Origin: Acidocella sp.
GTDB lineage: Bacteria; Pseudomonadota; Alphaproteobacteria; Acetobacterales; Acetobacteraceae
Reading direction: 5' to 3'
Length of the DNA: 64,000 nucleotides
Assembly: GCA_027308685.1 (NCBI GenBank)
Contig: DAIDEE010000005.1
Span: forward strand, 26-64,025
Positions 7,264 to 45,782 of the stretch are shown piece after piece (the first letter of the stretch is position 1; each line of letters begins with the position of its first letter). Under the pieces are notes generated by a model. That model did no database searches, was not told the origin of the DNA, and saw only the letters and a program-made list of their open reading frames with translations. A program made the position numbers and the translations under genes.

Positions 7264-7323
7264 CCAGACTATAAACTCGGCCCACATCGCAGCCTACCCG
7301 CAATCATTTACGAGGTTTTTTGT

Positions 7324-27499: not shown

Positions 27500-29077
27500 T
27501 TACGTTCTGAGCCTGTTCAGATGCGCAACAAGCCCGCGGGTGGAGACATCCTGTGCTGGATCATCAACCCCGGACGCCACCACCGGCAAAAGCTGGGTTG
27601 CCAATTCCTTGCCAAGCTCCACGCCCCATTGGTCAAACGCATTGATGTTCCAAATGGCGGCCTCAACGAATACCCGATGTTCGTAAAGCGCAATGATTTT
27701 ACCGAGCGTGGCGGGGTCTAGTTTGCGGTAGGCCAGCGTGATGGAGGGGCGGTTGCCGGAAAATACGCGGTGCGGGTTCGCGTTGGCCTGCGCAAGATTA
27801 CGCCCCAACATTAAGGCCTGCGCTTGCGCCAAGCAGTTTGCCATCAGCAAATCATGGTGCTGTTGCAAATCTGGTTCATGGCTTTGCGCCGCGATAAGAA
27901 ATTCGCACGGCACAATATTCGTGCCCTGGTGCAATAATTGGTAGAAAGCGTGTTGCCCGTTGGTGCCTGGTTCACCGAACACGAGCGGGCCGGTGGCGTG
28001 CAACACGGCGGCGCCGTTGCGCTGTACGCTCTTGCCGTTGGATTCCATATCAAGCTGTTGCAAGTAAGCTGGCAAGCGTGACAACCGCTGATCATACGGC
28101 AGCACAGCGCGGGCGGCATAGCCACATGCATTACGGTGCCATACGCCGACCAGCGCCATCAGTACCGGTAAATTTTTAGCCAGCGGCGCTTCACGGAAAT
28201 GCGTATCCATATCATACGCGCCGGCTAGAAATTTTTGGAAATTTTTGGCGCCGACCGCGATCATCACAGGCAGGCCGACCGCGCACCACACCGAATAGCG
28301 GCCGCCCACCCAATCCCAGAATCCGAATATTTTATCTGCGGCAATGCCAAAAGCGACGACTTTATCGACAGCCGTCGAGACCGCCGCAAAATGCGCCGCC
28401 ACCGCCGCCTCCCCCAACGCAGCCACCAACCAGCGCCGCGCCGTGTGGGCATTGGTCATGGTCTCGATCGTCACGAAGGTTTTAGATGCGATGATGAATA
28501 AGGTACGGGCCGGGTTCAAACCACGCAGCGTATCAGTGATATGCGCGCCATCGACGTTCGAGACAAAATGCAGACGCGGGCCGTCATGATACGGTGCCAG
28601 CGCACCCGTTACCATCACGGGCCCCAGGTCTGAGCCGCCGATGCCGATATTCACCACATCGGTGAAGGCTTGGCCGTCCGCCGCGGCAATTTTGCCAGTC
28701 CGCACAAAGTCAGCAAATTCATAAAGCCGCAAAAAACTGGCCCGAATTTCAGGCATCACATCCTGGCCATCCAACAGCACGGACGTGCCGGAGATATTAC
28801 GTAACGCGGTATGCAGCACCGCGCGATTTTCGGTGATATTTATTTTTTCGCCAGCGAACATCGCATCACGTCTGGCGGCAACATTTGTGACGGCAGCCAG
28901 CCGCAACAGCGCCTGCAGGCTGACTTCGGATAGCGATGTTTTTGAATAATCGAGCAACAAATCATCGCATGTGGCAGAAAATTTTGCGAAGCGGTCAGCA
29001 TCATGGGCGCATAAATCAGCAATATTAGGCTGCGTATCGGCAAACGCCAGGACATCCGACCAGGCATCTTGGCTCAT
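27500..29077 (-). CDS. pgi: Glucose-6-phosphate isomerase
   Basis: [29 protein letters not shown] and [13 protein letters not shown] 29077 overlaps the eda stop. Confidence 0.95.
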
Positions 29078-29730
29078 TTGGTTTGCTCCTGGCGATGAAT
29101 GTTCAATGCAGCCGCCTGAGCCGCCAGCTTTGTGATCCCCGCCCAATCACCAGCCGCCATCGCGGCGCGGCTCACCATCCATGATCCGCCGACACAAATG
29201 ACATTTGGGAGTTTGAGATATTTCGGTGCTGATTCCAGCGTAATTCCGCCGGTGGGGCAGAAAGTGAGCTGCGGCAACGGCGATGCAATGGCAGACAAGA
29301 ACGGCGCACCGCCGGCTGGCTCGGCTGGAAAAAATTTTGCGAACTGATAGCCGCGCTCGATCAACAGCATCGCCTCGGAGGCCGTGGAAATTCCTGGCAA
29401 TGGCGCCAAGCCTGACTGGAACGCCGCGTCGAGAAGTGCTGGTGTGCTGCCGGGCGATACCGCAAACCGGGCCCCGGCTTTCGCAGCTTCGCGATAGTGC
29501 GCGGGCTCCAGCACGGTTCCCACCCCCACCAGCGCCCCGGGCACGTCTGCGGCAATCGCCCGGATCGATTCCAAAGCTGCCGGCGTGCGCAATGTAATTT
29601 CAATGACCGGCAAGCCGCCTGCCAGCAAAGCGCGCGCCAGCGGGATTGCATGCGCCATATCATCGATCATCACCACCGGAATGACTGGTGCGGCGCGCAG
29701 AATGTCGCTCAAGCCTTGTTGCATGTTCAT
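29074..29730 (-). CDS. eda: KDPG/KHG aldolase
   Basis: IEITLRT, VGVGTV, AKFFPA and FCPTGGI. Confidence 0.95.
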
Positions 29731-31553
29731 GCTGTCACCTTATTAAAAATACTCGCACCTGTGTCGGCCGAACTGACTGCGGCGCGGAACGCACTGAATA
29801 ACTCCCGCCCTACACCGGCATGGTTGGCCGACAAATCAGCCACCGCTTGCGGCCGCGCCGCCCATTCCGGCGCATCCACCAGAACGGTCAAATGGCCATT
29901 GATGCCATCGATACGAATGATGTCGCCGTCTTTAATTTTTCCGATCGGCCCACCATCGACAGCTTCGGGTGTGACATGGATCGCGGCTGGCACTTTGCCC
30001 GAGGCGCCGGATAACCGACCGTCCGTCACCAGTGCCACCTTAAAACCTTTATCTTGCAACACGCCGAGTGGTGGGATCAGCTTATGCAGTTCTGGCATGC
30101 CATTAGCCTTCGGCCCCTGGAAACGCACCACCGCGACCATGTCATGGTTCAGCGCGCCGGCTTTGAATGCGGCCTGCACGTCTTCCTGACTGTTAAATAT
30201 TTTTGCCGGGGCTTCAATAATATGCCGATCTGCTGCCACAGCCGACGTTTTGATCACTGCGCGGCCTAAATCGCCATCCAGGACGCGCAACCCGCCCGTT
30301 GGCTGAAACGGATTTTTAACACCACGCAGCACATTTTCATCACCACTCGCTGTCGCCGCCGGAAGCCACTTTACCTGGCCCTGACCATCCAGCATCGGTT
30401 CAGTGGCGTAGGCGGCAAGCCCCTGCCCTGCCACAGTCTGCACATCCTCATGCAGCAGGCCGGCCTCCAGCAATTCACGGATCACAAACCCCATGCCGCC
30501 GGCCGCATGAAAATGATTCACATCCGCAGCGCCATTCGGATAAATCCGGGCAAGCAAAGGCGTTACCGCCGCGAGGTCGGAAATATCATCCCAGGTCAGC
30601 AAAATTCCGCCCGCTGCGGCCATCGCCAGAATATGCAGCGTATGGTTGGTTGACCCCCCTGTGGCGTGCAGCCCCACAATTCCATTTACGAACGCTTTTT
30701 CGTCCAGCATCGCGCCAACCGGCGTGTATTCATTGCCTGCCGCGCTCATCGCCACCGCGCGCTTGGCCGCCGCGGTCGTTAGCGCATCGCGTAGTGGCGT
30801 ATTCGGGTTGATAAAGGCGGCACCAGGCAAGTGCAGGCCCATCATCTCCATCATCATCTGGTTGGTATTGGCGGTGCCGTAAAATGTGCAGGTGCCGGGG
30901 CCATGGTAGGATTTTGCTTCAGCTTCCAGCAAATCCGCCCGGCTGACCTTGCCTTCCGCGTAGAGTTGGCGGATTATTGACTTCTCGTTGTTCGGCAGAC
31001 CCGATGTCATGGGGCCGGCCGGAATAAACACCGCAGGCAGATGCCCGAAAGCCAGCGCACCGATGACCAGCCCTGGTACGATTTTGTCACAAATTCCCAA
31101 AAATACCGCGGCATCAAAGGTCTGGTGCGAAAGGGCGACTGCCGTGGCGAGCGCGATGACATCGCGCGAGAACAGCGATAATTCCATCCCGGCCTCGCCT
31201 TGTGTAATGCCGTCACACATCGCAGGCACGCCGCCCGCCACCAGCGCCACACTGCCCGCTTCACGGGCGGCGGCGCGGATTAGATCGGGGAAGCGTTCAT
31301 AGGGCTGATGGGCGGAGAGCATATCATTATAGGCTGTCACAATCCCTAAGCTGGCGCCGTTGCCAGAGCGTAGCGCCGCTTTATCGCCGGGCGCACAAGC
31401 GGCAAAACCATGCGCCTGGTTCGCGCAACCCAGCGCCTGCCGGTGCGGCGTGGGTTGTGCCGCCGCCGCCATGCGCTCCAGATACGCCAAACGCGCTGCT
31501 TTGCTGCGGGCGATGATGCGCTCAGTGACAGACTGAACTTGTGGGTGAACCAT
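29727..31553 (-). CDS. edd: 6-phosphogluconate dehydratase
   Basis: [26 protein letters not shown] and GMPELHKL. Confidence 0.95.
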
Positions 31554-31555
31554 AT

Positions 31556-32224
31556 TTATGGACTCCAAAAAACATCAGGGGCTGGCTGACGCACCAGCAC
31601 CGCCGCGACAGGCATGAGAGGAGACAGAGTTTCCAGCACGCGCCGCTTGGCCTCACCTTCAATATGGAGTGCCAGATAGCCCGCCGCCAGCAATACCGGC
31701 AATGTCAGCGTGATGCGTGGCTCGACCGCCGCTTCGGTGCGCATGGTTTCCACCATAGCGCCATCGGCTGGCGCGAGTGCCGCGCTAAGCCGGTCACCGC
31801 CTGGAAAGAACGAGGCGGTATGGCCGTCGATGCCCATGCCAAGCACCGCTGCCGCCAATGGCAACGCCAGCCCGGCGATGGCAAGATGAGCGGCGTTGCG
31901 GCCATCCTCAGGCGTTGCGGCGGCATTCACCAGCGGTAAAAAACGCGCGGCGGCGGCTTTATTTTGCAAAAGAAATTGCCGCACCAAACCCTCATTGGAA
32001 CGCGGTGAGCTTGCCGGTACCCAGCGATCATCCACCAAGGTCACTGTTACCGCCGCCCAGTTCACATCGCGCGTGGCGAGTTTTGTGAAAAATCGTAGCG
32101 GCGTGGTGCCGCCGGAGACCGCCAAGGCGGCGGCACCGTCACGGCTGATGCGTGCCTGCAACGCCGCCGCCACGGTGTCAGCCAGAGACTCTGCCAGCGC
32201 ATCCGAGGACGCAAAAATCTTCAC
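31556..32224 (-). CDS. pgl: 6-phosphogluconolactonase
   Basis: [15 protein letters not shown] and [14 protein letters not shown]. Confidence 0.92.
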
Positions 32225-33702
32225 GAGCCGCCATCAAGCCAGGTGCGCCCATCACGCTCGATCAACGCAATGGCAGCCGAGGGCCCCCATGTGCCGGCCG
32301 TGTAAGGCTTCGGCGATTCGGCGGAGTCCGACCAGGCTTTCAAAATCGGGTCGATCCACACCCAGGCGGCCTCGACCTCGTCACGCCGCATGAATAGCGT
32401 CTGGTCACCGCGCACCACATCCAACACCAGACGCTCATAGGCATCGGGGTTGCGCACTTGAAAGGTTGTGGCGAAACTCATATCCAGCGGCACCTGCCGC
32501 AAGCGCATGCCGCCCGGGCCAGGGTCTTTGGTCATCAACCATAATTTCACGCCCTCATCGGGTTGCAGGCGGATGACCAGACGGTTGGCCACAATGGTGC
32601 CCGCCGATTCATCGAATACCGAGTGCGGGATAGGCCGGAACGCGATCACAATCTCCGAGACACGCTCTGCCAGACGCTTGCCCGTGCGCAGATAAAACGG
32701 CACCCCCGCCCAGCGCCAATTCTCGATTTCGGCTTTCAGCGCCACAAAAGTTTCGGTGGTGCTGGTGTTGGCGCCCAACTCCTCGAGATAACCCGGCACG
32801 GCGCCACCCGCCGATGCCCCCGGCCGGTATTGGCCGCGCACCACGATATGGGTGGAAAGCGCATCAATCACCGGCTTGAGGGCCCGCAGCACTTTCAGCT
32901 TTTCGTCACGCACCGCATCGGCATTCAGTTGCGCCGGCGGTTCCATCGCCACCAGGCACAGCAATTGCAAAATATGGTTCTGCACCATGTCGCGCAGCGC
33001 GCCGGCGGTGTCGTAATATCCGGCCCGGCCTTCCACGCCCAAACTCTCAGCCACCGTTATCTGCACATGGTCGATATGGGCAGCATTCCAGAGTGGTTCA
33101 AACAGCCCGTTGGCAAAGCGTAGCGCCATCAAATTCTGCACGGCTTCTTTACCGAGATAATGGTCGATACGGTAAACCCGGTCTTCCGGGAATATTTTTC
33201 CAACATCCTCATTTACAAGCCGGGCCGAGGCGAGGTCTTTGCCGATGGGTTTTTCAACCACCACGCGGGCCTGGCTATGGGCCAGACCAAACCGTCCCAA
33301 ACGCTCACAAATGGGGCCAAACAGAGCCGGCCCGGTGGCGAGGTAAAACACATGCACGCGGTTGGGGATGGCCTGCAAAGCGGCGGCCAGCGCCTCCCAT
33401 CCGGCATCGCTATCGGCATCAGCGGCCACGTAGCGCAGGCGGGCAATGAAATGCGCCACCTCTGCGTCGGTGCGCTCGGCAGAGGGCACATGGTCCAGCA
33501 CCGACTGCCGAGCCATTTCGATATAGGCGGCTTCGGTCAACGGGCCGCGCGAGACCCCCATAATGGTGGCGTCTTTCGGCAATTGCCCCGCCACGTCACG
33601 TTGAAACATTGCGGGGATCAGCTTGCGGCGGGCGAGATCTCCGGTTGCACCGAATACCACCAGCACAAAAGGCACCACAGGGATCACACGGCTCGTCATC
33701 AT
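32221..33702 (-). CDS. zwf: Glucose-6-phosphate 1-dehydrogenase
   Basis: FGATGDLA, RIDHYLGKE and WAGVPFYLRTGK. ATG 33702 overlaps the pfkB stop. Confidence 0.96.
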   Translation of the reverse strand: MMTSRVIPVVPFVLVVFGATGDLARRKLIPAMFQRDVAGQLPKDATIMGVSRGPLTEAAYIEMARQSVLDHVPSAERTDAEVAHFIARLRYVAADADSDAGWEALAAALQAIPNRVHVFYLATGPALFGPICERLGRFGLAHSQARVVVEKPIGKDLASARLVNEDVGKIFPEDRVYRIDHYLGKEAVQNLMALRFANGLFEPLWNAAHIDHVQITVAESLGVEGRAGYYDTAGALRDMVQNHILQLLCLVAMEPPAQLNADAVRDEKLKVLRALKPVIDALSTHIVVRGQYRPGASAGGAVPGYLEELGANTSTTETFVALKAEIENWRWAGVPFYLRTGKRLAERVSEIVIAFRPIPHSVFDESAGTIVANRLVIRLQPDEGVKLWLMTKDPGPGGMRLRQVPLDMSFATTFQVRNPDAYERLVLDVVRGDQTLFMRRDEVEAAWVWIDPILKAWSDSAESPKPYTAGTWGPSAAIALIERDGRTWLDGGS

Positions 33703-34640
33703 CGCTCCAATGCTTTCAAAATCTCTTCGGCTCGTGGCAGGTCTGCTCCCTGGCGGGTGCAGGCTAACCCACCTGCCATGCAAGCGAACCGCAGGATAGA
33801 CTCCAAATCAGGCCCGGATAGGGCTTTTAACTGCAATGCTCCCGTGCAGCCCCTTACATAAAGCTGGTGTAGCAAGGCTGCCTGAAATGCATCGCCCGCG
33901 CCAACGGTATCGATAACGGTCACGACCGGGGCCAGCGTTTCCACGGTCATGGTTGCCGTGACCGCGACAGCGCCATCGCCGCCCTTTGTTATCACCACCA
34001 GAGCTGGCCTCTCAACCAGCCAGGCGCGGGCAATGGTGAGCATATCAACCCCCGGATAGAGGCGCTCTAGATCCTCAACACTAACTTTTACAACATCTGC
34101 ACATCGCACCCACGCGATAACCCGGTCACGCCAAAGCGTCACGTCCGGCTCAACATTCAGCCGCACATTGGGGTCAATACTGATCAGCCGCCGACCAGCC
34201 TCCCGCTGCGCGAGCGCAAAGTAACAACTTGCCGCCGGTTCGCAGACCAGCGCGTAGGAGCCGAAATGCAGCCCGGCCACATCATCGGCCAACACCGGCA
34301 AATCCTCTGGCGTTAGCGCCCGGTCTGCCGCGCCATCGCCGTAAAACGCATATGAGGGCACACCGGCGTCTCCCAGCATCACCAGGCTGAGCGTTGTAGG
34401 GGCAGCTTTACGGACGATATAGGATGTTGACACGTTTTCCAGGGTCAACGCCGCCGCGATCTGCTGACCGAGGCGGTCGTATGAAATGCCTGAAAAAAAC
34501 CCAACCGATGTGCCAAGCCGTGCGATACCCACCGCTACATTGTAGGGCGACCCACCATGGCGCGCCTTGAACATGTCAATATATTCGGGTGTTCCGGTCA
34601 TGAAAAGGTCGAACAGCGCCTCACCGCACACCAGAAACAT
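33699..34640 (-). CDS. PfkB family carbohydrate kinase, probable fructokinase
   Basis: GEALFD, GGSPYNVA, DPNVR and DTVGAGDAF, typical of ScrK/FrcK-type fructokinases. Confidence 0.85.
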   Translation of the reverse strand: MFLVCGEALFDLFMTGTPEYIDMFKARHGGSPYNVAVGIARLGTSVGFFSGISYDRLGQQIAAALTLENVSTSYIVRKAAPTTLSLVMLGDAGVPSYAFYGDGAADRALTPEDLPVLADDVAGLHFGSYALVCEPAASCYFALAQREAGRRLISIDPNVRLNVEPDVTLWRDRVIAWVRCADVVKVSVEDLERLYPGVDMLTIARAWLVERPALVVITKGGDGAVAVTATMTVETLAPVVTVIDTVGAGDAFQAALLHQLYVRGCTGALQLKALSGPDLESILRFACMAGGLACTRQGADLPRAEEILKALER

Positions 34641-35821
34641 CAGCGAGTGACCAAATATGCTTGGTTGCCATTTAAGGCGATTTTGAAAAATGGCGCCGGC
34701 ACGCCCCCAAACTGGCGGCGCACCAAGTCTGGATGTTCAGCTAATGTGCGCCCGGCCATGCCCCAATAATCAACAAAGCTGGTGACGCTTAAATCTCCCA
34801 ACACACACCAGCTATAGGCTTGCAGAGGCTCGGCTGCCGGGTTGGCCACGACCAGCCCGCTACCATTGAGGGGGGTGTAGTCGCCAAACAGGCTTGGTGC
34901 CGACATTCCATACATGCCTGTTGGGCCAGCTTCCAACCCTTCAGCAAATACATGCGACTGGGTGGACCAGACGACATAATAAATGCCCTTGGCATATACG
35001 AGTTGCGGACGTTCAAGCTCGTTATTGATCCCGTCGGCGCTGAGGAGTGGCGGCAGCAGTTCCCAATGCGCCAGAGTATCATCGCTCGCCCGCGCGATAC
35101 CCACCGCGCCATTGGCTTCATGCGGCGAGTTTTTCAATGAGGCCGCAAACACGACATAATTTTTGCCATCTGCGGGGTCGCGGAAATATGCAGGGTCACG
35201 AAAGGCCTTTAATTTACCGGGCAGACCTTCAGCATGATTGACCAGCATATAGATGTTATCATCGCTGACAAACATTTCCCGCGGCGTTACCCAGTTACGG
35301 ATGACAGGCAGGGGCGCGCCTAAATCAAGGGTTCCGGTTGTTTGAAAAAGCCTTTGTTCAACGGTGAGTTTTTCTTCGCCACGGCGGCCGGCCGCGGTAA
35401 AAAATAATGTTATGTCACGGGTCAAAAAATCGTAAATCGCCGAACCTGACCAATCGCGGCTGCCAGGCGCAAAACCGTCAGGCATGGCATCGCCACAATC
35501 GAACCACTTGCGATCGCGCTGTAACAATAGCCGAATACGGGCAAAACCATGCCGCATGATCGGGTCTGGTTGGATCGGTGCGGCCAAAGCAAACCATAAT
35601 ACACCGCCCGCGATCGCGGCGGTTGAACCATCACGTAAATTCAGCGGCCACATATCCCATATATCCAGCCCGGGTAGTCCTGGCTGCAAATCGGCCGGCC
35701 CGATGACGGGAATACGCGGCACGTCGGTTACATGGATTTTTGCAACATGTTCGGCGGTCCAGACAGCGCGCGTGCCTGCTGGTACCGTTTGCGGCATAGT
35801 TTGCTTCAACATATATCTCAC
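34640..35821 (-). CDS. Glycoside hydrolase family 68 (beta-fructofuranosidase/levansucrase-like); start between 35821 and 35797
   Basis: IWDMWP (nucleophile), WSGSA, FRDP and NELERP (acid/base). No signal peptide. Confidence 0.87.
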   Translation of the reverse strand: MRYMLKQTMPQTVPAGTRAVWTAEHVAKIHVTDVPRIPVIGPADLQPGLPGLDIWDMWPLNLRDGSTAAIAGGVLWFALAAPIQPDPIMRHGFARIRLLLQRDRKWFDCGDAMPDGFAPGSRDWSGSAIYDFLTRDITLFFTAAGRRGEEKLTVEQRLFQTTGTLDLGAPLPVIRNWVTPREMFVSDDNIYMLVNHAEGLPGKLKAFRDPAYFRDPADGKNYVVFAASLKNSPHEANGAVGIARASDDTLAHWELLPPLLSADGINNELERPQLVYAKGIYYVVWSTQSHVFAEGLEAGPTGMYGMSAPSLFGDYTPLNGSGLVVANPAAEPLQAYSWCVLGDLSVTSFVDYWGMAGRTLAEHPDLVRRQFGGVPAPFFKIALNGNQAYLVTR

Positions 35822-35837
35822 TTATTCTAAAATCGTT

Positions 35838-37163
35838 TCAACCTGCCACAGCAAGACCGCGCGGCACGGCACGGATACGCAGGGTGGCAAACGCCCCGGC
35901 AAACATTAAAATCCCGCCTAGCATCAGCACATTGCGCGGGTCACTCGCCAGCACATGGCCGTAGAGCAGTGGCATGGTGACCCCGAATAACAGCATGGGG
36001 AGCACAATAAACATATTGAAAATACCCATATAAACACCGGTGCGGGCCGCCGGGATGGAGTTGGCCAGCATCACATACGGGTTACCCATAATACTGCCCC
36101 AGCCGAGACCTATGCCAATGACTGCGGGAAACAAAAAAAGTTTTTGATGCACAAGCGGAATTATCAGCATTGCAACACCAGATGCGGCGAGGCTGACGGC
36201 ATGCACATTGCGGGCGCCATAACGCCGGCTGATCGGCACCATGGCAAATGCGGCGATGAACGCAACGAAATTGTAAAATGCCCCGATCTGACCATTGGTT
36301 AACACGGCTTCACGGAAGCCGGCACTATCGGCTGTTGCCGTGGCATAGACCGATCGGCCAATGGAATAGGCCACGTAACTCCAATAACACATCATGGCAT
36401 ACCATTGACACAGGCTCATCAGCGCCATGCGGCGCATGGTGTCAGGCATTTCCACCACAGCGTCTCGAATGTCACGCAGCATGGTGGTGAAGCCGATTTT
36501 TTTGTGCCGCATTTCAGCAATTTCATCGCTGGAGAGCGGCAATTCAGGGACCGCCAGCACCGACCATAGAATGGTACCGATCGATAAAAATGCCCCGATG
36601 ATAAACGCGATATGGGTGACGAACGGTATGCCGTTGGACGCCAACGCGTCACGGCTGACCCCCAGCATCACAAAAATCGTCGGGGTGACGTAAGCCAGGG
36701 TCTGCGCCAGACCTGTGAAAGAACTTTGCGTTAAAAAACCTAACTCGCGCTGCGCGGGCGCTAATCTGTCGCTCACATAAGCGCGGTAAGGTTCCATCGT
36801 GACGTTGTTGGCGGCATCCAAAGCCCATAGCAGCAGCACCGCCGCCCCTATCGATCCGCTGTAAGGCATCGCAAACAAGCTGAGGCTGCAAATAATTGCA
36901 CCGGCAATGAAATACGGCACCCGCCGTCCCCAGCGGGTTGTGGTCCGGTCGCTCAGGGCGCCAATTATCGGCTGCACCAGTAAGCCGGTGATGGGACCGG
37001 CCAGTTGCAGCAGCGGCAACGATGCTTCGCTGGCGCCTAGATAGCTGTAGATCGGCCCCATATTACCTTGCTGCAAGCCAAAACTGAATTGCAGGCCCAG
37101 GAAGCCGATATTCATCAGAATAATTTTCCGCATGGTGAGATGCGGTTTAAGCGGCGTTCCCAT
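35838..37163 (-). CDS. MFS/GPH sugar:H+ symporter (SuxC/MalT-like)
   Basis: [29 protein letters not shown]...GRRVPY and [10 protein letters not shown]. Confidence 0.87.
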
Positions 37164-37229
37164 TTAGATCCTGCGCGACTGTTTTTGTTCTGCGGTATCG
37201 GGTACTTTATGGCATATTGATTCAGGTGT

Positions 37230-37243
37230 TGCAATCGATTGCA
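37230..37243. promoter_or_regulatory. LacI-family operator 1
   Basis: Perfect 14-bp palindrome TGCAATCGATTGCA in the divergent MFS/glk intergenic region. Confidence 0.78.
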
Positions 37244-37276
37244 TTAGTGTCCAGAAAAAGAAAACGGAGGGCGATC

Positions 37277-38260
37277 ATGATTAACAAAGCGCAGGAAATC
37301 GTTGCTGTCGATATAGGCGGCACCCATGCTCGTTTTGCGATCGCGGCCATTGCCGGGGGCAGAGTTCTCCGCCTTTCAGCGCCTGTCACATTACTGACCA
37401 GCGACTATGCGAGCTTCACCAGCAGCTGGGACGCATTTGGCCGCAGCCTGGACCAGCCGTTGCCGCGGGCAGCCAGCATCGCCGTTGCCAGCCCGATTGT
37501 GGGCGATGTGTTGAAACTAACCAACAACCCCTGGGTGATCCGCCCCGCCAGTTTGCAACAGGAATTGCACCTGGACGCATTGATGCTGCTGAATGATTTT
37601 GGTGCCATGGGGCATGCGGTCAGCCATATGACAGCCGCGGATTTGCACCATCTGACCGGGCCAGACATTGCGCTGCCGGAAACGGGCATTATCACCGTGA
37701 TTGGCCCGGGGACCGGCTTTGGTGTCGCGCATGTGTTGCGCCAGGGTGGAACAGCACATGTCATCGCCTGCGAGGGCGGGCATATTGATTTCGCGCCGTT
37801 GGATCGTTTGGAAGACGCCATTCTGGTGCATCTGCGCAAACGCTATCGACGTGTTTCAGTGGAACGGCTGGTCTCGGGGCCTGGCCTTGCGAATATTTAC
37901 GAAGCCCTGGCGGCCATTGAAGGCCAGGCCGTGCAAACCGGCGATGATAAATCGCTCTGGACCCGTGCGATAGCGGGAACAGATCGGTTGGCGCGCGCTG
38001 CTCTGGACCGGTTTTGCCTGAGCCTGGGGGCGGTTGCGGGTGACCTGGCGCTGGCGCACGGCGCATCCGCGGTGGTGATTACCGGCGGGATCGGCCCGCG
38101 CATTGCAGAGCTACTGCCACATTCCGGCTTTGCTGACCGCTTTGTCGCCAAAGGCCGTTTTGAACGGATGATGGCTGACATACCGGTAAAACTAATCACC
38201 CACCCCCAACCGGGGCTGCTGGGTGTGGCAGCCGCGTTTGCCGCCGCCCACCCGGGCTAA
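37277..38260 (+). CDS. glk: Glucokinase
   Basis: VDIGGTHARFA, LNDF, GPGTGFG, EGGH and ERLVSGPGL. ATG 37277 follows a GGAGG RBS. Confidence 0.92.
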   Translation: MINKAQEIVAVDIGGTHARFAIAAIAGGRVLRLSAPVTLLTSDYASFTSSWDAFGRSLDQPLPRAASIAVASPIVGDVLKLTNNPWVIRPASLQQELHLDALMLLNDFGAMGHAVSHMTAADLHHLTGPDIALPETGIITVIGPGTGFGVAHVLRQGGTAHVIACEGGHIDFAPLDRLEDAILVHLRKRYRRVSVERLVSGPGLANIYEALAAIEGQAVQTGDDKSLWTRAIAGTDRLARAALDRFCLSLGAVAGDLALAHGASAVVITGGIGPRIAELLPHSGFADRFVAKGRFERMMADIPVKLITHPQPGLLGVAAAFAAAHPG

Positions 38261-39450
38261 TTACGAAGAAAGGTCCACAGCATTGCCAATTGCGCGGCGC
38301 CATCACCACCGCCCACGGCCCGCCACATCGGGATCGCCTTATTTGGCTCACCAGCCATTGCATAGGCCATGCCCATTTCCAGCTCGGCCTGGTCGATCTG
38401 CCTGAGCGCACCGCTGCGGATGGATTGCTCCATCAGGCCGATGCCGGCGTTATCGCCGCCAGCCACATCGTTAAACCCGATGTCAAACAAAGTTTGAAAA
38501 TCCTTGGCAGCTAGAGCCTGAGTTGCCTGCTGGGAGGCCTCCGCTTTGGCGGCATCACGGCGCTTATCCACCAAAGCCTTCAAACGATTCTGCCGGTCCA
38601 GGTCTGCTCCACTGCCGAGCAAGCCATTTTTTTGGCCGGTAGCAAAAATCTGCTCGGCGGTGTTGGGCAAACCAGTCTGCAAAGCCTCCTGCGTATATTC
38701 CATATAATCGGGTTCTGGTGCCGCAACGCCAGCCGCCAGCTTCAACCGGAAAAAATCCAGCGCCAGGCGGTCGCTATAGGCCGGGTTTGACTGCAACTGG
38801 CCCAACAGCCCGCTCCAATAAGTAGGATTTGGATAAAACTGCACCAGCAGGCTCATATCTGCCACGTAGCCGGTCATGTTTTTGGCGTTTGTGTCGCAAT
38901 AGGCCAGCATTTGCAGTTCGTTTTCTGCCGGTGCGTGGCCGCCGTGCGTCGCTGACTTGATGGCTGGCGCCATATCCGCGCTGATCGATTTACAATCGCC
39001 CATCTGATAATAGGATTGCAGCAAAATCGGGTGAAAGCGCTGATCGCCAGCCAAATAGGCCTTAATGGTTTGCACCGTTTTGGCGTATTCGCCAGCCTGG
39101 TATTGCGAACTTGCCAGGGATTCAGCGATGGTTTGGGTTTGCGCTGGCGGCAGTGCGCCAGTTGCCAGAATGGCGGCATAGTCATTGGAGGCCGCCGCAT
39201 GATTACCCGACCCTGTGTCGATCGCCGCCCGCAACTGTGCGATGGTAAGCTGCTCGTCCGGGGTTTTGTTCGGCACCGCTTCCGCCTGCGCCACCGCGGC
39301 GAGTGCCGCCGCATATTTGTGGGCGCTCAGCAAATGTTCGGCATTCAGCAACGGCGTTGCAAGCGCCGCCGGCATCGGGTCGGCGGCGGCGGTTGTCGCC
39401 AGTAGGGTTACGAACCCCGCGACACAGCACATTGTATTCAGCATTTTCAT
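38257..39450 (-). CDS. Exported TPR-like alpha-helical protein at the end of the tonB-exbBDD cluster
   Basis: Signal peptide ending AAA-D, with repeated helical Ala/Tyr/Gln patterns. Confidence 0.7.
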   Translation of the reverse strand: MKMLNTMCCVAGFVTLLATTAAADPMPAALATPLLNAEHLLSAHKYAAALAAVAQAEAVPNKTPDEQLTIAQLRAAIDTGSGNHAAASNDYAAILATGALPPAQTQTIAESLASSQYQAGEYAKTVQTIKAYLAGDQRFHPILLQSYYQMGDCKSISADMAPAIKSATHGGHAPAENELQMLAYCDTNAKNMTGYVADMSLLVQFYPNPTYWSGLLGQLQSNPAYSDRLALDFFRLKLAAGVAAPEPDYMEYTQEALQTGLPNTAEQIFATGQKNGLLGSGADLDRQNRLKALVDKRRDAAKAEASQQATQALAAKDFQTLFDIGFNDVAGGDNAGIGLMEQSIRSGALRQIDQAELEMGMAYAMAGEPNKAIPMWRAVGGGDGAAQLAMLWTFLRN

Positions 39451-39466
39451 GCCCGTCTCCGGTCGT

Positions 39467-39898
39467 TTACTGCGCATATTGCTCGTTACCTACAATCCCA
39501 ATTTTGGTCACACCCAGACGCTGGGCCGCGGCCATCACCGCAATCACGGCGCTGTAATTGGCCAGTTTGTTCGGGTTGATATGTACTTCCGCCTGGGTTG
39601 GTTCGGAGGCAATGGCGGACAGCTTTTGCGCGAGCGTGGCGCTGTCGGGCACCACCACGCCATTCCAGGAAACCGTACCGTCAAAATCGATATCGATCTG
39701 CACCACTTCCGGCTGCACCAAAGGCGGTGGCGGGTTACCGGAAGGTAAATTCAAATTCACCGCATGTAACTGAATGGGAATGGTAATAATCAGCATCACC
39801 AGCAGAACCAACATCACGTCGATTAAAGGCGTGGTGTTGATATCCACCATTTCTTCCGGTTCATCCGACCCGCCACGCGAGCCAATATTCATACCCAT
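39467..39898 (-). CDS. exbD: Biopolymer transport protein ExbD
   Basis: DINTTPLIDVMLVLLVMLII. Confidence 0.92.
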   Translation of the reverse strand: MGMNIGSRGGSDEPEEMVDINTTPLIDVMLVLLVMLIITIPIQLHAVNLNLPSGNPPPPLVQPEVVQIDIDFDGTVSWNGVVVPDSATLAQKLSAIASEPTQAEVHINPNKLANYSAVIAVMAAAQRLGVTKIGIVGNEQYAQ

Positions 39899-39912
39899 AC
39901 TGCGTACCCCCG

Positions 39913-40347
39913 TTAGTTTCCCGCACCATGCGGCGGTGGTTCGGTAATGAAACCTACTTTGAGAATGCCCACATGCTGGCAGGCATACATTACCTCACCG
40001 ATAAATTTATATTGCACATTGGCATCGCCACGAATTTCAATCGTCGGCTGCGGGGTTATCACCGCCACCTTCGTCAGGTCGTCCACCAACGTTGGCAGGT
40101 CCTTTACATATGTCTGGTTCCAGAAAATATCGCCATTTTTATTGACAGAGATGTTGATATTCTGCGGCGTGGTTTGCAGCGGCTGGTTGCGCTCCTTCGG
40201 CAGCACAACCGGCACCGTGTGCGTCACCACCGGAATGGTGATGAGGAAGATGATGAGCAGCACCAGCATCACGTCCACCAGAGGCGTGGTGTTAATGGTG
40301 GAGACAACCTCATCCTCATCGGCTGAGCTACCAATTTGCATCGCCAT
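39913..40347 (-). CDS. exbD: Biopolymer transport protein ExbD
   Basis: TINTTPLVDVMLVLLIIFLI and IRGD. Confidence 0.92.
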   Translation of the reverse strand: MAMQIGSSADEDEVVSTINTTPLVDVMLVLLIIFLITIPVVTHTVPVVLPKERNQPLQTTPQNINISVNKNGDIFWNQTYVKDLPTLVDDLTKVAVITPQPTIEIRGDANVQYKFIGEVMYACQHVGILKVGFITEPPPHGAGN

Positions 40348-40350
40348 AGA

Positions 40351-41265
40351 TCAGGCTCCGCGTGGTGTTGGGTTGGTGCTTAGCAGCACGAATAATAGTT
40401 TTTTGGCAAATTTGCGGGTTAGCTCCATCACTTTTTTATTGCGGCGAACCAGGAAGTTATAGCCCAGCACCGCCGGCACCGCGACAGCAAGACCGATGGC
40501 TGTCATGATCAGGGCTTCACCCACTGGGCCTGCGACTTTGTCGATACTGGCCTGGCCAGCGATGCCAATGGCGGTGAGCGCATGGTAAATACCCCAGACA
40601 GTGCCAAACAACCCGACAAACGGTGCGGTGGAGCCAACGGTGCCCAGCAATGCCAGGCCTTCCTGCATCCGGCTCTGCACGGCCTCAACGCCGTCTTGAA
40701 TCTGGCTTTCAGCGAAGCTGTGAATATCGATTTTATCCAGCAAGCCAGTGTGCTTATCGAGTGATTCCACGCCGCAACTGGCGACATATTGTAACGCTGT
40801 GCCTTTTTTGAGGGTATCCGCAGCGGCCTGAACCGAACTGGCATTCCAGAAGGTTTTGTCAGCGACCTTGGCTTCTTTGATCAATTTGCTCTGGCTGAAT
40901 GCCTTGGTGATCAGCACATACCAACTGCTCATCGACATGATCACCAAAATCAGCAGCGTGCCACGGGCGACGAAATCACCGCCAGCCCATAGGGCGCCCA
41001 AACCATACGGGTTGGCTACATTTTCAATGGTGGTGGCCGCAACCGGTGGCGGTGCCACCGGCGGCGCAGCCGCGCTGGCGTCAGCCGGTGCCGCCGCTGG
41101 AGCAGCGGCAGGGGCGGCGGCAGGGGCGGCGGTTGCATCAGGAGCGGCTGGTGCCGACATCGCCGCCGGGGGCTGGGTTTGTGCGTGGGCGATATGACCC
41201 AGAGCAACCGCAGCTGTGCTGAAGGCCGCCAGTGTTAACGCAATATGAAGTTTGGAGTTTTTCAT
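40351..41265 (-). CDS. exbB: ExbB (MotA/TolQ/ExbB) with N-terminal signal and Ala/Pro-rich extension
   Basis: LGTVGSTAPFVGLFGTVWGI and EALIMTAIGLAVAVPA. Start ATG 41265. Confidence 0.92.
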   Translation of the reverse strand: MKNSKLHIALTLAAFSTAAVALGHIAHAQTQPPAAMSAPAAPDATAAPAAAPAAAPAAAPADASAAAPPVAPPPVAATTIENVANPYGLGALWAGGDFVARGTLLILVIMSMSSWYVLITKAFSQSKLIKEAKVADKTFWNASSVQAAADTLKKGTALQYVASCGVESLDKHTGLLDKIDIHSFAESQIQDGVEAVQSRMQEGLALLGTVGSTAPFVGLFGTVWGIYHALTAIGIAGQASIDKVAGPVGEALIMTAIGLAVAVPAVLGYNFLVRRNKKVMELTRKFAKKLLFVLLSTNPTPRGA

Positions 41266-41323
41266 GGCTTTTCTCTCAGAAAAAACGAAAGGACGGTTAA
41301 ATGAAACAGCAATGTCAACGGCA

Positions 41324-41941
41324 CTAATTAGCTTGGAACTCAAACGGTGCACGCACCTGCACATCCTGCCCCTGCCCCTTGCAGGACAATGCCGCCACCC
41401 CAGCCAAGGCCAGTGCATTTACGCCCTGGAAGTTGGAGGACACGATGGTGGCGTTACTCACCTGGCCGGTGGCGCTCACGGTGAACTGAACCACAACATC
41501 AGCGGTATTCACGCCAGATGTATCGGCGATATCCTGAAAGGCTGACGATAATTTTTTCGCTACGGCCACCACATTCGGACACACCACACCCACGCTGGTA
41601 TTGGGCGTCTGCGGCGCTGTGCTTTGCGGCGCGCTCGGCTTGGCGCTGGTAACAGCAAAGACTTGTTGCGGCGGTGCCTGGACCTGAATAATCGGCGGCG
41701 GCACGTAAGGCGGCGGCGGTGCGGCCAGCAAAGGCGGCGGCGGTAGAACGACCTGCGGTGGCGGCGGCGGCGGTGTGGTCTGCTGAATGATTTTAATTTC
41801 GAGCGGCTTCTTGATCATCTCAACGGCGCTTGTCGCGAGCCCGCTGACCAGCGCGTACACCAGAAACACATGCAGCAGAATGACAACACCAATTCCGATG
41901 ATGGTATTGCGGCTCGGTCCTTGGCTGTCACTAAAATCCAT
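41324..41941 (-). CDS. tonB: TonB family energy transducer
   Basis: N-terminal TM helix with conserved His (LLHVFLV), Pro-rich spacer, and C-terminal VVVQFTVSATGQV. Confidence 0.85.
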   Translation of the reverse strand: MDFSDSQGPSRNTIIGIGVVILLHVFLVYALVSGLATSAVEMIKKPLEIKIIQQTTPPPPPPQVVLPPPPLLAAPPPPYVPPPIIQVQAPPQQVFAVTSAKPSAPQSTAPQTPNTSVGVVCPNVVAVAKKLSSAFQDIADTSGVNTADVVVQFTVSATGQVSNATIVSSNFQGVNALALAGVAALSCKGQGQDVQVRAPFEFQAN

Positions 41942-42050
41942 TGTCGTTCCTATCCCATCGATCCCTGCCTGAGGCCGGTATTTTTACCGTGGCCAGGGAG
42001 GGAGTTTTTAAGGCACGTATAATCGCTTGAGTATATCTTGTCTTTAGGGG

Positions 42051-42080
42051 CCGCCAGACCGGCTTGCGCCAGACCGGCGG
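42051..42080 (-). terminator. Stem-loop with GCAA tetraloop after the TBDR gene
   Basis: Minus strand CCGCCGGTCTGGC-GCAA-GCCGGTCTGGCGG, containing a 12-bp direct repeat. Confidence 0.45.
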
Positions 42081-42095
42081 TTATTGATCAGTCCT

Positions 42096-44510
42096 TTAGA
42101 ACGTGTATTTCAAAGTACCTTTGAACGTCTGGCCGTCGAACGCACGGGCCGAAGTACCTGATGCCGGGGCACCTGGCAGACCATTGCTGGTACCGTCATA
42201 TTCGGTGTAGGCCAGGGTGTTCAGAATATTGTTGCCTGTGAATAGCAGCGCCAGATGCGGTGTAATTTGGTAATTCACGAAAGCATTGAACAACACATAG
42301 CCCGGCATCACGATGTTATTCTGGTCGTTGGCAAAGGATGATGTTGTTCCAATCGCGCTACCGCCCACGGTAATCGCACCGTATGTGTAGGATGGCGCCA
42401 CCTGGAATATCCAGTCAGCCTGACGTTGCGGTACGTTGCCCTTAACGCTGCCGCCGGTACCGTAGGTTTCAGTCGTCGCGGTGATCCGTGAATGCGTATA
42501 GGTTGCACCGCCGGTCACCCGGAAGCCTCCATACACATAACCCAATTCAATTTCCGTACCATAAGCGTCGTACTTATTGGCAGAAGAAACCTGCGTGGTC
42601 GCACTGTAGTTTGATTCAGCCGTCTGGGCATCAAAGAGCGTTACAAATGCGTTGAAGTTGCCATAACGCGCCTTCACGCCGCCTTCATACTGCATAACCG
42701 TATTGATCGGCACCGGCACCGAGCCGTTTAGCTGTTGCGCTCCCGGACCATTGATCACGCGGTCGGCGTTAAAGGAGGAGCCGTCGCTGACACGAGCAAA
42801 CACCGCGAGGTCGCGGTTGAACTGATAGTTCGTACCGATTGAATAAGACGTGTGCTTCACAGTGTAGTTGATCGGCGACGAGCCATTTTGATAAACGGCG
42901 TTGTTATTCGGCGCAGGATTGCCGTTGGCACTTGCGAATGAGTACGAACCGCTCGCCTGCTGAATATCCTCACGAACGCTGGCATCTGACGTGAAATTAC
43001 CAATCGACCAGCCCAAATCAAAATAGGGCGACATCGTAAGGTAAGAGCCGTTGATGACGCGCTCACAGCAATGACCGAAGCCGCTGCCGAGGCCACCAGC
43101 CTGCAAGTTGGCGCCGGTGGGACCATAAGGGCCATTCACCGCGTTCAAAAACTGTGGGTTATTGCCTGATAAGGTTGCATAATACTGGTTGAAGTCCCAG
43201 GTCAGATTGACCTTCTGCTGCGCCACGTAAAAGCCGACCGTCGGGGTGAAAGTGCCAAACGAACCTTCATCCAAAGGCGGTGCGGAAATTTTCAGATCGT
43301 TCGCAATGTTGCTGAGGTCATTCAGCTTGGTGTCAAACGTAATCAAACCAAAAGCCGCGCCATTGTAGGCCTGGCCAGCATTGGGGCCGGTGCCATAGGT
43401 GGCGCCGGTTAATGTCACACCATTATCGGACGGGTAAAGACCAAGGAAATTTCCGGTATTATCGGAATAGCGGAAATTATCGTCGATATTGATGCCGTTA
43501 TCAAAGGTCTTGTTGAACTCCCCACCGACCGACTTGGTTTCAGCGTAGTTACCGGTGCCTATATTGGTCGAACGCAGACCGTTTGCGCCGGTTAACGTGG
43601 TGTCTGTGCCGAAATATTTTGAGTAAAAGCTGGCCGTACGCGGGTCGATACCCGGCAAGGCGGTAATGGTATTGTTCACGATACTGACCGGTACCGGCAA
43701 GTCGGTCGGGGTGATGTCGTTCAAATATTTAAAGTTCAGACGAACGAAGCCACCTTCGATATCGTGGGTGAAGTTGCCGTGAATCTGGCCACCGTTGACG
43801 ATCGTTGTGCCGGCGTTGCGGGTGCCATTGCCGGTATTGTAAAAGCCAGCAATTTCGTAACGATTATTGGCATCGATCGGACCACCGTAGTCGAAATCGA
43901 GGCGCTGTTCGTTATAGCCGAGACCACTGGTAGCAGACACGCTGCCGCCCTGGGTCTTACCGGTCTTATCGATGAAGTTGATGATGCCGCCTGGCGCATT
44001 GGTGGCCAGCGTGGAGGCGGAACCGCCGCGCACAACCTGCACCTGGTCAAGCATCCCGTCGATGCGAATAAAGCTATCCGGCGTGGCAAACGCGATGTCG
44101 CCAAAGTCCAGAACCGGCAAACCGTTCTCCTGGAATTGCACATAGCGCGAACCGCCAGCCGAAATTGGCAGGCCGCGGACGGTCACGTTAGCGTTGCTTT
44201 CGCCGCCGGAAGCCTGCGATTGCACACCCGGTATGTTACGGATCACATCGGCAGCACTGGAAGCACCCGACACGGCAATGGCCTGCGCTCCCAATGTGGA
44301 GACCGAAACCGAAGATTTCATCTTGGTGACTTTACGGGCGGTACCCGTCACCACGATTTTGTCAAGGCTGAGCGGAGATGCCTGGGTGGTTGCAGAGGCG
44401 GCGGTTTGCGCGTGAGCAACAGCCAGCGGCACCAGCGCGGCCGTCATCGCGCCTAATACAATATAACTAGACCGCAAACCACGGCCATGCAGACGTCGAA
44501 TACTCGCCAT
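42096..44510 (-). CDS. TonB-dependent outer membrane receptor (putative sugar transporter)
   Basis: Signal peptide, TonB box DKIVVTGT, plug domain (IPGVQ...VRGL...VVRGGSAS...PGGIINFI) and C-terminal KYTF. Confidence 0.93.
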   Translation of the reverse strand: MASIRRLHGRGLRSSYIVLGAMTAALVPLAVAHAQTAASATTQASPLSLDKIVVTGTARKVTKMKSSVSVSTLGAQAIAVSGASSAADVIRNIPGVQSQASGGESNANVTVRGLPISAGGSRYVQFQENGLPVLDFGDIAFATPDSFIRIDGMLDQVQVVRGGSASTLATNAPGGIINFIDKTGKTQGGSVSATSGLGYNEQRLDFDYGGPIDANNRYEIAGFYNTGNGTRNAGTTIVNGGQIHGNFTHDIEGGFVRLNFKYLNDITPTDLPVPVSIVNNTITALPGIDPRTASFYSKYFGTDTTLTGANGLRSTNIGTGNYAETKSVGGEFNKTFDNGINIDDNFRYSDNTGNFLGLYPSDNGVTLTGATYGTGPNAGQAYNGAAFGLITFDTKLNDLSNIANDLKISAPPLDEGSFGTFTPTVGFYVAQQKVNLTWDFNQYYATLSGNNPQFLNAVNGPYGPTGANLQAGGLGSGFGHCCERVINGSYLTMSPYFDLGWSIGNFTSDASVREDIQQASGSYSFASANGNPAPNNNAVYQNGSSPINYTVKHTSYSIGTNYQFNRDLAVFARVSDGSSFNADRVINGPGAQQLNGSVPVPINTVMQYEGGVKARYGNFNAFVTLFDAQTAESNYSATTQVSSANKYDAYGTEIELGYVYGGFRVTGGATYTHSRITATTETYGTGGSVKGNVPQRQADWIFQVAPSYTYGAITVGGSAIGTTSSFANDQNNIVMPGYVLFNAFVNYQITPHLALLFTGNNILNTLAYTEYDGTSNGLPGAPASGTSARAFDGQTFKGTLKYTF

Positions 44511-44596
44511 TTTGTTTCCTCTCTGTTGATAAGAGGTTTCACGGCGGTATCGCCGCGCCCCCCTCTTTTTGTTAACAAGGGTGTTTTGAACTAAAA

Positions 44597-44610
44597 TGCA
44601 ATCGATTGCA
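44597..44610. promoter_or_regulatory. LacI-family operator 2
   Basis: Second perfect TGCAATCGATTGCA, 87 bp upstream of the TBDR start. Confidence 0.78.
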
Positions 44611-44744
44611 ATAACTATGTATGAAAATATTTCCGCGGCGGTTGACGCGGTAAACCACCAGCTTCACGTCAGGAATTTTTTTCTACAGGTTTGTTTTTTC
44701 AACAATTTTTCTAAATGGGTGTATTAACCACGCCCTTGAGGCGG

Positions 44745-45782
44745 CTATTTTGCGCCGCAAGACGCCCGCACAACCAATGAGGTTGGTAATATTGTTGACT
44801 GCGTTGGCGTGCCGTTCAAGCGATGAAACAACGTTTCAACCAGCGCTTTGGCCCCCCCTCCGATATCTTGCCGCACGGTTGTCAATGCCGGCGTGTAGGC
44901 GGCTGCAAGCATAATGTCGTCGAATCCGACGATTGAGACGTCCACCGGGACCCGGATACCGCGCTGGTCGAACACGTTGATCGCTGCAATCGCCACGAGG
45001 TCTGACGCTGCAAACACCGCATCGAACGGCAATTTTTTGTCAAGAAATCCGTTCATCGCCTTGCGGGCGCCTAGCCGGTCGAACGGCACGCGGCATTCCA
45101 AGGAGGGGTCCAGGGCAATATCAGCCTTTTCGAGGGCCGCGACATAGCCTGCATAGCGCTCACCGATTTCAGGCAAAATTTTATCACCAAAAAACGCGAT
45201 GCGCCGATGGCCCAGCGCCACCAGATGCTGCACGGCCATCACAGCCCCATTGTAATTATCCGACCCTACCGTGAGATAATGATTATCCGGTAGCGCCGCC
45301 CCCCACACCACCAGCGGTTCGTAGCGTGAGGCCAGCTCATTGATGACGGCATTCTGGGTGGACTGGCCGATCACAACCACCCCATCCGAACGGCGCTCAT
45401 TGATCAATTCAACCAAGCCGCGTGGCTCGCCGGGGGCGATTTTATGCAGCAGCAAATCATAATGGCGGTCTGACAATTCATCGGCCAGATACCCAAGCAT
45501 TTCCAGAAAAAACGGGTCTGAAAACCCCGAATCAACTTCATGCAACAGCGGGAACACCACACTGATTGTGCCGGTTTTTTGCAAGCGCAAATTACGGGCG
45601 CGCAAATCCAGCACATAGCCGTGGTCTTCGGCGATTTTTTTAATCCGCAGGCGGGTTGCTTCGTTAATCAGCGGATTATCAGAAAGGGCCCGCGAAACAG
45701 TCGATTCTGAGACGCCCGCTAAACTGGCAATGTCTGACATTTTAACATTCGCCATACTGCGGGCACCGTCCATTTTTTCCAT
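44745..45782 (-). CDS. LacI family transcriptional regulator (start may be ATG 45752)
   Basis: KMSDIASLAGVSESTVSRAL HTH, hinge ARNLR, and VSIVGFDD...LTTVRQ. Confidence 0.94.
   Translation of the reverse strand: MEKMDGARSMANVKMSDIASLAGVSESTVSRALSDNPLINEATRLRIKKIAEDHGYVLDLRARNLRLQKTGTISVVFPLLHEVDSGFSDPFFLEMLGYLADELSDRHYDLLLHKIAPGEPRGLVELINERRSDGVVVIGQSTQNAVINELASRYEPLVVWGAALPDNHYLTVGSDNYNGAVMAVQHLVALGHRRIAFFGDKILPEIGERYAGYVAALEKADIALDPSLECRVPFDRLGARKAMNGFLDKKLPFDAVFAASDLVAIAAINVFDQRGIRVPVDVSIVGFDDIMLAAAYTPALTTVRQDIGGGAKALVETLFHRLNGTPTQSTILPTSLVVRASCGAK

Follow-up and report, generated by a model that had tools for sequence, protein, structure and literature searches.

In Xanthomonas, the sux locus encodes the TonB-dependent receptor (TBDR) SuxA, the symporter SuxC, the cytosolic hydrolase SuxB of glycoside hydrolase (GH) family GH13_4 and the repressor SuxR, all of which have been established experimentally (PMC1790865; a 2026 study of X. 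oryzae, PMC12798719). Partly conserved sux loci have also been noted in Sphingomonas SKA58 and Erythrobacter litoralis, with sucrose degradation that seemed 'more classical' (Blanvillain et al., 2007; PMC1790865); the enzyme was not characterised in that study, and the word levansucrase has no mention in its main text, which we did not search for 'GH68'. A survey of LacI regulons places SuxR only in Xanthomonadales and lists several ScrR groups as well (PMC4052901). Here we analyze a 64,000-nucleotide stretch of DNA from Acidocella sp. (assembly GCA_027308685.1, contig DAIDEE010000005.1, positions 26 to 64,025), termed the window, which contains an 18.3 kb block (27500-45782) of genes for sucrose use. 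We consider it likely that this block is a sux-type carbohydrate utilization locus containing a TBDR (CUT locus), whose substrates would be sucrose and perhaps other small beta-fructosides and which combines import, cleavage by a GH68 enzyme, Entner-Doudoroff (ED) catabolism and control by LacI.

Genes were called from an open reading frame (ORF) listing together with Pfam and NCBIfam profile scans of the window's proteins. These scans confirmed, each at its place, all genes that an initial annotation had assigned to the block, and all of them except glk lie on the minus strand. As in Xanthomonas sux, a TBDR, a sucrose-type transporter of the major facilitator superfamily (MFS), a LacI repressor and a glycoside hydrolase without signal peptide are found in one locus, a set consistent with import followed by cleavage. 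The sux likeness proposed in the initial annotation thus holds, with GH68 replacing GH13; for the TBDR, the MFS transporter and LacI, it is a likeness of protein family and gene content. Unlike SuxB, a GH13_4 enzyme, the hydrolase belongs to GH68, whose fold is a five-bladed propeller. The receptor, the transporter and a regulator with operators are all present. The block encodes no glycoside hydrolase other than GH68, however, and hence no GH13_4 enzyme corresponding to SuxB, and for this reason the locus works like sux without being a sux locus in the strict sense. Additions relative to Xanthomonas sux are kinases for both hexoses, the TonB-ExbB-ExbD-ExbD cluster and its fifth gene, and the ED trunk together with pgi.

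In the mechanism that we propose, the TBDR would take sucrose through the outer membrane, powered by the adjoining and co-inherited TonB-ExbB-ExbD-ExbD motor, and the SUT-like MFS symporter would move the intact sugar to the cytoplasm. The short, signal-less GH68 would then split sucrose into glucose and fructose, Glk and the PfkB-family kinase would phosphorylate both hexoses, and Pgi would turn fructose-6-phosphate into glucose-6-phosphate, which Zwf, Pgl, Edd and Eda would convert to pyruvate and glyceraldehyde-3-phosphate. The LacI repressor would bind a 14-bp palindrome at the TBDR promoter and in the divergent MFS/glk region, and imported sugar would probably free it from these operators. 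Finally, the 11 genes from lacI to frk would constitute an accessory module that in this lineage was attached, head to tail, to the ED operon that is core to the genus. The logic of import and subsequent cleavage, put forward in the initial annotation, fits the gene set; the cytoplasmic location of GH68 and its hydrolytic action are steps that we infer, as are the substrate, the inducer, the extents of the operons and the dedication of the TonB motor to the locus receptor.

The GH68 protein contains the catalytic residues of its family, the Asp of WDMW, the Asp of FRDP and the Glu of ELERP. A residue census of 120 homologues showed no variation at the RDP Asp or at the acid/base Glu; the nucleophile Asp was seen in 117, and the other three have gaps at this site. 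The AlphaFold model, a five-bladed beta-propeller (predicted local distance difference test score, 90), was compared to solved structures by Foldseek, which gave a template modelling (TM) score of 0.89 to the inulosucrase InuHj of Halalkalicoccus jeotgali (7bjc, 38% identity) and of 0.84-0.85 to levansucrases. InuHj (PDB 7BJ4, 7BJC) is the closest solved structure and shares the catalytic triad and the compact single domain. It is, however, a polymer-forming archaeal enzyme with His at a position where 114 of the 120 clade members, including the locus enzyme, have Gln. In HmcIsc, a related haloarchaeal inulosucrase described as extracellular, an HXHT motif occupies this His/Gln site (PMC8066391). 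The locus enzyme has Gln280 in place of the His or Arg found in the +1 subsite of polymerising GH68 enzymes. We take this position to correspond to His296 of Zymomonas mobilis SacB and Arg360 of Bacillus subtilis SacB, residues that are required for transfructosylation.

Members of the clade are approximately 385 amino acids (aa) long, and since a median of 12 residues precedes the first conserved Trp in the 120 homologues, the clade lacks a signal peptide. The locus enzyme itself has 385-389 aa, depending on which of two candidate start codons is used (ATG 35809 or 35797). In its GH68 fold, its length and the lack of a classical signal peptide it resembles Zymomonas SacB, Erwinia Lsc and Pseudomonas syringae Lsc, which have about 400 aa. 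These enzymes, however, are exported levan producers, and linkage of their genes to those for a TBDR, an MFS transporter and LacI is not known. The clade is large, with 1949 database matches, and most GH68 genes are automatically named 'levansucrase'. The most economical reading of the sequence is that the locus GH68 would be a cytoplasmic, hydrolytic beta-fructofuranosidase, since its gene is linked to those of a sucrose-type symporter and of a cytoplasmic kinase, no hexose transporter is encoded in the locus, and GH68 enzymes tend toward hydrolysis at low sucrose concentration.

A scan of species-representative genomes recovered at least 565 related stretches, mostly from Sphingomonadales, and also from Caulobacterales, Acetobacteraceae (Acidiphilium) and others. 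We studied 80 of these related loci, and the following gene counts refer to the best 40 with full 10-kb flanks. An MFS gene is co-located with GH68 in all 40, and GH68, MFS, LacI and TBDR are found together in 38. The core of the architecture is therefore widespread in Alphaproteobacteria, and special neither to the source genome nor to Acetobacteraceae. A literature search that paired GH68 or levansucrase with TonB, acetic acid bacteria, intracellular, Sphingomonas and raffinose found no description of it. Thus, this core quartet is a widespread GH68 variant of the sux-type CUT locus which, as far as we found, is undescribed. The sux loci of Sphingomonas SKA58 and E. litoralis probably belong to the same alphaproteobacterial family as the 80 recovered loci. 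Loci of this type usually have a ROK kinase, often GH36-galT-galK, and lack a TonB cluster, and in this the source locus differs from them.

In numbers, a ROK sugar kinase gene follows GH68 in 32 of the 40 loci and a PfkB kinase gene in none, GH36 alpha-galactosidase is encoded in 19, galT in 14 and galK in 13, and ED genes are adjacent in 3-5. The TonB cluster is absent from all 40 and was found in a single one of the 80 (L003). What is rare in the source locus, then, is the TonB cluster with its fifth gene, a kinase of the PfkB rather than the ROK type, the divergent glk, and the coupling to the sole ED genes and pgi. ED genes directly follow GH68 or its kinase also in Acidiphilium (L013) and in a member of the Caulobacteraceae (L073). 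The typical sphingomonad order is represented by L017 (4240-19560), which reads MFS-GH36-galT-galK-operator-GH68-ROK-lacI-operators-TBDR-Trp-halogenase-like-zwf-pgl-edd and is, as predicted from its genes, a sucrose/raffinose locus. The position of GH36, galT and galK between MFS and GH68 in sphingomonad loci suggests use of raffinose-family sugars. A Trp-halogenase-like gene is the next gene after the receptor in 24 of the 40 loci. In the cultured Acidiphilium sp. C61 (L004), an IS21-type element consisting of an istA-like transposase gene and an IstB ATPase gene (5345-7704) lies between lacI and glk-MFS-GH68, the place of the receptor and the TonB cluster in the window; this strain seems to have lost the receptor or never to have had it. 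Other cultured carriers of related loci include Sphingomonas sp. PAMC 26621, Novosphingobium umbonatum FSY-9, Sphingorhabdus buctiana CGMCC 1.12929 and Chakrabartia godavariana PRB40.

The two identical operators reported in the initial annotation were recovered as exact copies of TGCAATCGATTGCA, and these two, O1 and O2, are the only ones in the 2.86 Mb genome. O2 is 66 nt away from the ATG of the MFS gene and 33 nt from that of glk, and lacI itself has no upstream operator. A terminator-like hairpin (44633-44650) is found between lacI and the TBDR promoter region, with O1 downstream of it; in scans for promoters and terminators, sites were no more numerous than in shuffled sequence, and the output of these scans was not used except for this hairpin. 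The LacI protein is 40-64% identical to the LacI proteins of related GH68 loci. When the 80 related loci (1.26 Mb) were scanned for palindromes with at most two mismatches to the operator, 221 matches were obtained, compared to 2-4 expected by chance. An operator is present in 74 of the 80 loci, ahead of GH68, MFS and TBDR genes, and in 29 of the 40 loci with full flanks GH68 has one within the preceding 250 nt. Tandem pairs occur in 38 loci and, in the examples read, mostly precede the receptor gene. Moreover, O2 has a counterpart at the equivalent position in L003, L004 and L013 as well as in G008, a second genome of the genus. This phylogenetic footprinting argues strongly that the palindrome would be a good LacI operator and that the predicted SuxR-like regulon is conserved. 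For the single LacI regulon of the initial annotation this means that the operator stands, whereas the ED and TonB genes are covered by operon geometry. There are just two operators and none at tonB or zwf, and that geometry weakly suggests that LacI may control these genes too.

Within the genus we surveyed 31 genomes, including the source genome. GH68 and the TBDR are present in two of them, the second being G008, the only one among the other 30. G008 has an identical 17-gene order, and 18.3 kb of its DNA can be aligned to the window, at 79.8% identity. This alignment starts a short way into lacI and continues slightly beyond pgi, the homology ending within approximately 10 nt of the pgi stop codon. 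The block boundaries are therefore real, since the congeneric alignment runs from lacI to pgi and then stops. edd, in turn, is present in 22 of the 31 genomes. Five other congeners have zwf-pgl-edd-eda only, followed by pgi in three of the five, and in G015 a divergent aldehyde dehydrogenase gene lies upstream of zwf. Based on this pattern of presence and absence, the 11 genes from lacI to frk form an accessory module on a core ED operon. In another of these five congeners (L091, G014:C7, 10418-18504), a fructose phosphotransferase system (PTS), fruB-fruK-fruA, and an OprB porin gene are found directly upstream of zwf-pgl-edd-eda-pgi; the PTS products are an EI-HPr-EIIA fusion, a 1-phosphofructokinase and an EIIBC protein.

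Composition gave no sign of the island status raised in the initial annotation: the module has 55.7% GC (29th percentile among 12-kb windows) compared to 57.2% for the genome, and recent horizontal transfer was rejected on this measure. Direct or inverted repeats of at least 10 nt flanking the block were not found. Synteny at the mutS and ycgN borders had been suggested as a further check. It recovered the same 18.3-kb block in G008, where the flanks match other contigs of the source genome and the neighbours differ on both sides. Because of these differing neighbours, and because mutS adjoins the ED operon in none of eight congeners examined, the borders say little about island status. The right flank (46032-47203) encodes a YcgN-like CxxCxxCC protein and a protein with a YgjP-like metallopeptidase domain, in ORFs that overlap by approximately 45 nt; a homologue of the YgjP-like protein was not found beside the block in G008.

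The receptor has a signal peptide (...AVAHA/Q) and a TonB box, DKIVVTG, both read in the sequence, and is one of only five TBDRs of the genome. The initial annotation had described the adjoining genes as a 'TonB-ExbB-ExbD-ExbD-TPR energiser', where TPR denotes tetratricopeptide repeats. ExbB and both ExbD proteins of such a system are present, with one PF01618 and two PF02472 matches. The TonB-like protein shows a clear N-terminal membrane anchor and Pro-rich region; its C-terminal domain is borderline, scoring 27.9 bits for TIGR01352 (cut-off 27.1) and 19-20 bits for Pfam TonB_C (cut-off 24.6). The TPR label was not upheld, as the 406-aa product of the fifth gene has no significant match to a Pfam TPR domain (best, TPR_6, E = 0.11). 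This protein has 49 homologues, and TPR Pfam domains occur only in distant ones, at 36-37% identity. A close homologue of the fifth gene is confined to the two genomes of the genus that carry GH68 and the TBDR. As judged from the gene distribution, the TonB cluster is co-inherited with the sucrose genes within the genus. That the motor is the only TonB motor of the genome is ruled out by a second exbB-exbD pair and five other TonB_C proteins. The second pair adjoins another TBDR gene on contig C6, and a pair on contig C20 is tolQ-tolR. On C6 (L083, G000:C6, 3613-10196), the second exbB-exbD pair and its TBDR gene are situated just downstream of genes for a type III polyketide synthase, a methyltransferase and an FAD oxidoreductase, and up to the contig end tonB was not seen beside them.

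For the MFS transporter, the best NCBIfam match is TIGR01301 (GPH_sucrose, sucrose/H+ symporter), below its cut-off. The PfkB-family kinase matches best to the fructokinase model NF006957, also below cut-off, and from this match together with its context it is probably a fructokinase. All four ED genes, zwf, pgl, edd and eda, are there. These genes as well as pgi, glk and frk are single copies genome-wide and all reside in the block; the only other match to edd is ilvD-like at 29%, hence the edd of the block is the sole one. Since the ED genes are single-copy and the phosphofructokinase domain PF00365 was not found in the 99.8%-complete assembly, the operon provides the only glycolytic trunk of the cell.

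The MFS and GH68 genes are separated by approximately 28 nt, and the GH68 stop codon and the start of frk have 1 nt in common. At the next junction, an ATGA directly preceded by GGAG contains both the stop codon of frk and the ATG of zwf, which in sequence terms indicates translational coupling. Overlaps of 4 to 13 nt follow between zwf and pgl, between pgl and edd and between edd and eda. Because of these overlaps and the short MFS-GH68 gap, MFS-GH68-frk-zwf-pgl-edd-eda-pgi looks like a single eight-gene operon, whose sole intergenic promoter region would be the 113-nt divergent MFS/glk region that carries O2. The gap between the TBDR gene and tonB, in turn, measures 154 nt and is free of operators. 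glk (plus strand) and the gene of the 406-aa protein (minus strand) converge, and as their 3' ends overlap by 4 nt (38257-38260), there is no space for a terminator between the two transcription units. The real start of glk is ATG 37277, behind GGAGG, and not TTG 37217. The true starts of pgi and exbB probably lie downstream of those of the longest ORFs; for exbB, the alignment to G008 begins only past the tonB stop. All features are listed in Table 1.

Table 1. Features of the sucrose block, in window coordinates, listed from lacI to pgi.
Feature	Position	Strand	Basis or remark
lacI, LacI-family repressor (SuxR-like)	44745-45782	-	Pfam LacI and Peripla_BP_3
Operator O1, TGCAATCGATTGCA	44597-44610	unstranded	Exact palindrome copy; 86 nt to TBDR start codon
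TBDR, TonB-dependent outer-membrane receptor	42096-44510	-	Pfam Plug and beta-barrel
tonB-like	41324-41941	-	Anchor, Pro-rich spacer, divergent C-terminal domain; borderline TIGR01352 match
exbB, long N-terminal extension	40351-41418	-	Pfam MotA_ExbB (PF01618)
exbD, first copy	39913-40347	-	Pfam ExbD (PF02472), 96.8 bits
exbD, second copy	39467-39898	-	Pfam ExbD (PF02472), 90 bits
Fifth TonB-cluster gene, 406-aa Ala-rich helical exported protein	38257-39477	-	Signal peptide; no Pfam match
glk, glucokinase	37277-38260	+	Pfam Glucokinase; TIGR00749, 252 bits (cut-off 225)
Operator O2, TGCAATCGATTGCA	37230-37243	unstranded	Within 113-nt divergent MFS/glk region
MFS symporter, sucrose/H+ (GPH/SUT) type	35838-37163	-	Pfam MFS_1 and MFS_2
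GH68, putative beta-fructofuranosidase, signal-less	34640-35809	-	PF02435, 181.6 bits (cut-off 27)
frk, PfkB-family sugar kinase	33699-34640	-	Pfam PfkB
zwf	32221-33703	-	Profile scan
pgl, 6-phosphogluconolactonase	31556-32224	-	Profile scan
edd, 6-phosphogluconate dehydratase	29727-31568	-	Profile scan
eda, 2-keto-3-deoxy-6-phosphogluconate aldolase	29074-29730	-	Profile scan
pgi, last gene of the operon	27500-29146	-	Profile scan

Several points weigh against reading the block as a sucrose CUT locus with a cytoplasmic GH68, a motor of its own and a sucrose-controlled ED trunk. The missing signal peptide does not prove a cytoplasmic location, since the GH68 enzymes of Zymomonas, Erwinia and P. 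syringae are signal-less yet exported, and the nearest solved relative, InuHj, forms polymer. GH68 could thus leave the cell without a signal peptide and act outside the cytoplasm as a levansucrase, an inulosucrase or an invertase, with the TBDR and the MFS transporter importing fructo-oligosaccharides or leftover sucrose. Its structural neighbours are secreted fructansucrases, and acetic acid bacteria are known levan producers. We consider such export quite improbable, because the locus lacks a hexose transporter, its transporter is of the sucrose-symporter type, and GH68 is wedged, with its 1-nt overlap, between the symporter and a cytoplasmic kinase, a linkage found in 38 of the 40 loci; moreover, the Gln replaces the polymerisation His/Arg in nearly the entire clade, which is just 28-29% identical to the exported Gram-negative levansucrases. 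The substrate is a further point, as GH36, galT and galK in the sphingomonad loci mean that the native substrates of the family may be raffinose-type sugars rather than sucrose alone. The real substrate in the source locus might then be a beta-fructoside other than sucrose, for instance raffinose, kestose or levanbiose, from which GH68 would remove the terminal fructose, and a secreted GH68 invertase highly active on raffinose has been described (PMC8060482). The source locus, however, has neither GH36 nor Leloir genes, about half of the related loci lack GH36 as well, and the encoded glucokinase and fructokinase are the two kinases that sucrose needs, so that we regard a different substrate as unlikely.

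The remaining points concern how far LacI control and the motor extend. Because of the five other TonB_C proteins and the second ExbB-ExbD pair, the motor may not be exclusive to the locus receptor. None of the exact TGCAATCGATTGCA copies in the genome stands ahead of tonB or zwf, and internal promoters are possible within frk or in the gap between the TBDR gene and tonB. The sucrose module and the ED genes could therefore adjoin by accident, with the ED genes, and perhaps tonB-exbBD, expressed from internal promoters of their own outside the LacI regulon. Congeners have the ED operon by itself or preceded by other modules, and with sole gene copies and no phosphofructokinase, constitutive expression seems necessary: repression of the only glycolytic operon whenever sucrose is absent would impair growth on glucose, and this speaks for extra promoters or leaky control. 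Yet the ATGA shared by frk and zwf behind GGAG leaves no intergenic promoter, the frk-zwf junction is retained in G008 and L102, and ED genes come after GH68 or its kinase in the Acidiphilium and Caulobacteraceae loci, too. Read-through from the regulated promoter would, moreover, still result in sucrose-dependent expression. We take the accidental adjacency seriously without favoring it.

To our knowledge, the literature has dealt with GH68 almost exclusively as a family of secreted enzymes that form levan or inulin. We tentatively propose, at somewhat below an even chance, that the signal-less Gln clade of approximately 385 aa is a cytoplasmic, strictly hydrolytic sucrose/raffinose enzyme and the analogue of SuxB in more than 500 alphaproteobacterial, TonB-dependent loci that share one conserved operator; in the source lineage, the module would come with a TonB motor of its own and put the only glycolytic trunk of the cell under sucrose control. 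If this is true, a family known for secreted fructansucrases would contain a functional class that has not been characterised, and such a large intracellular, hydrolytic clade would change both the annotation of GH68 genes as 'levansucrase' and the inference of fructan production from genomes. The conserved 14-bp operator offers a handle for regulon prediction. Within the genus, a modular pattern is seen in which differing sugar-uptake modules, the sucrose TBDR module or a fructose PTS with OprB, are placed directly upstream of a common core ED operon. More broadly, this family of loci points to frequent TonB-dependent scavenging of sucrose and raffinose among Sphingomonadales of freshwater and soil, Caulobacterales and acidophilic Acetobacteraceae.

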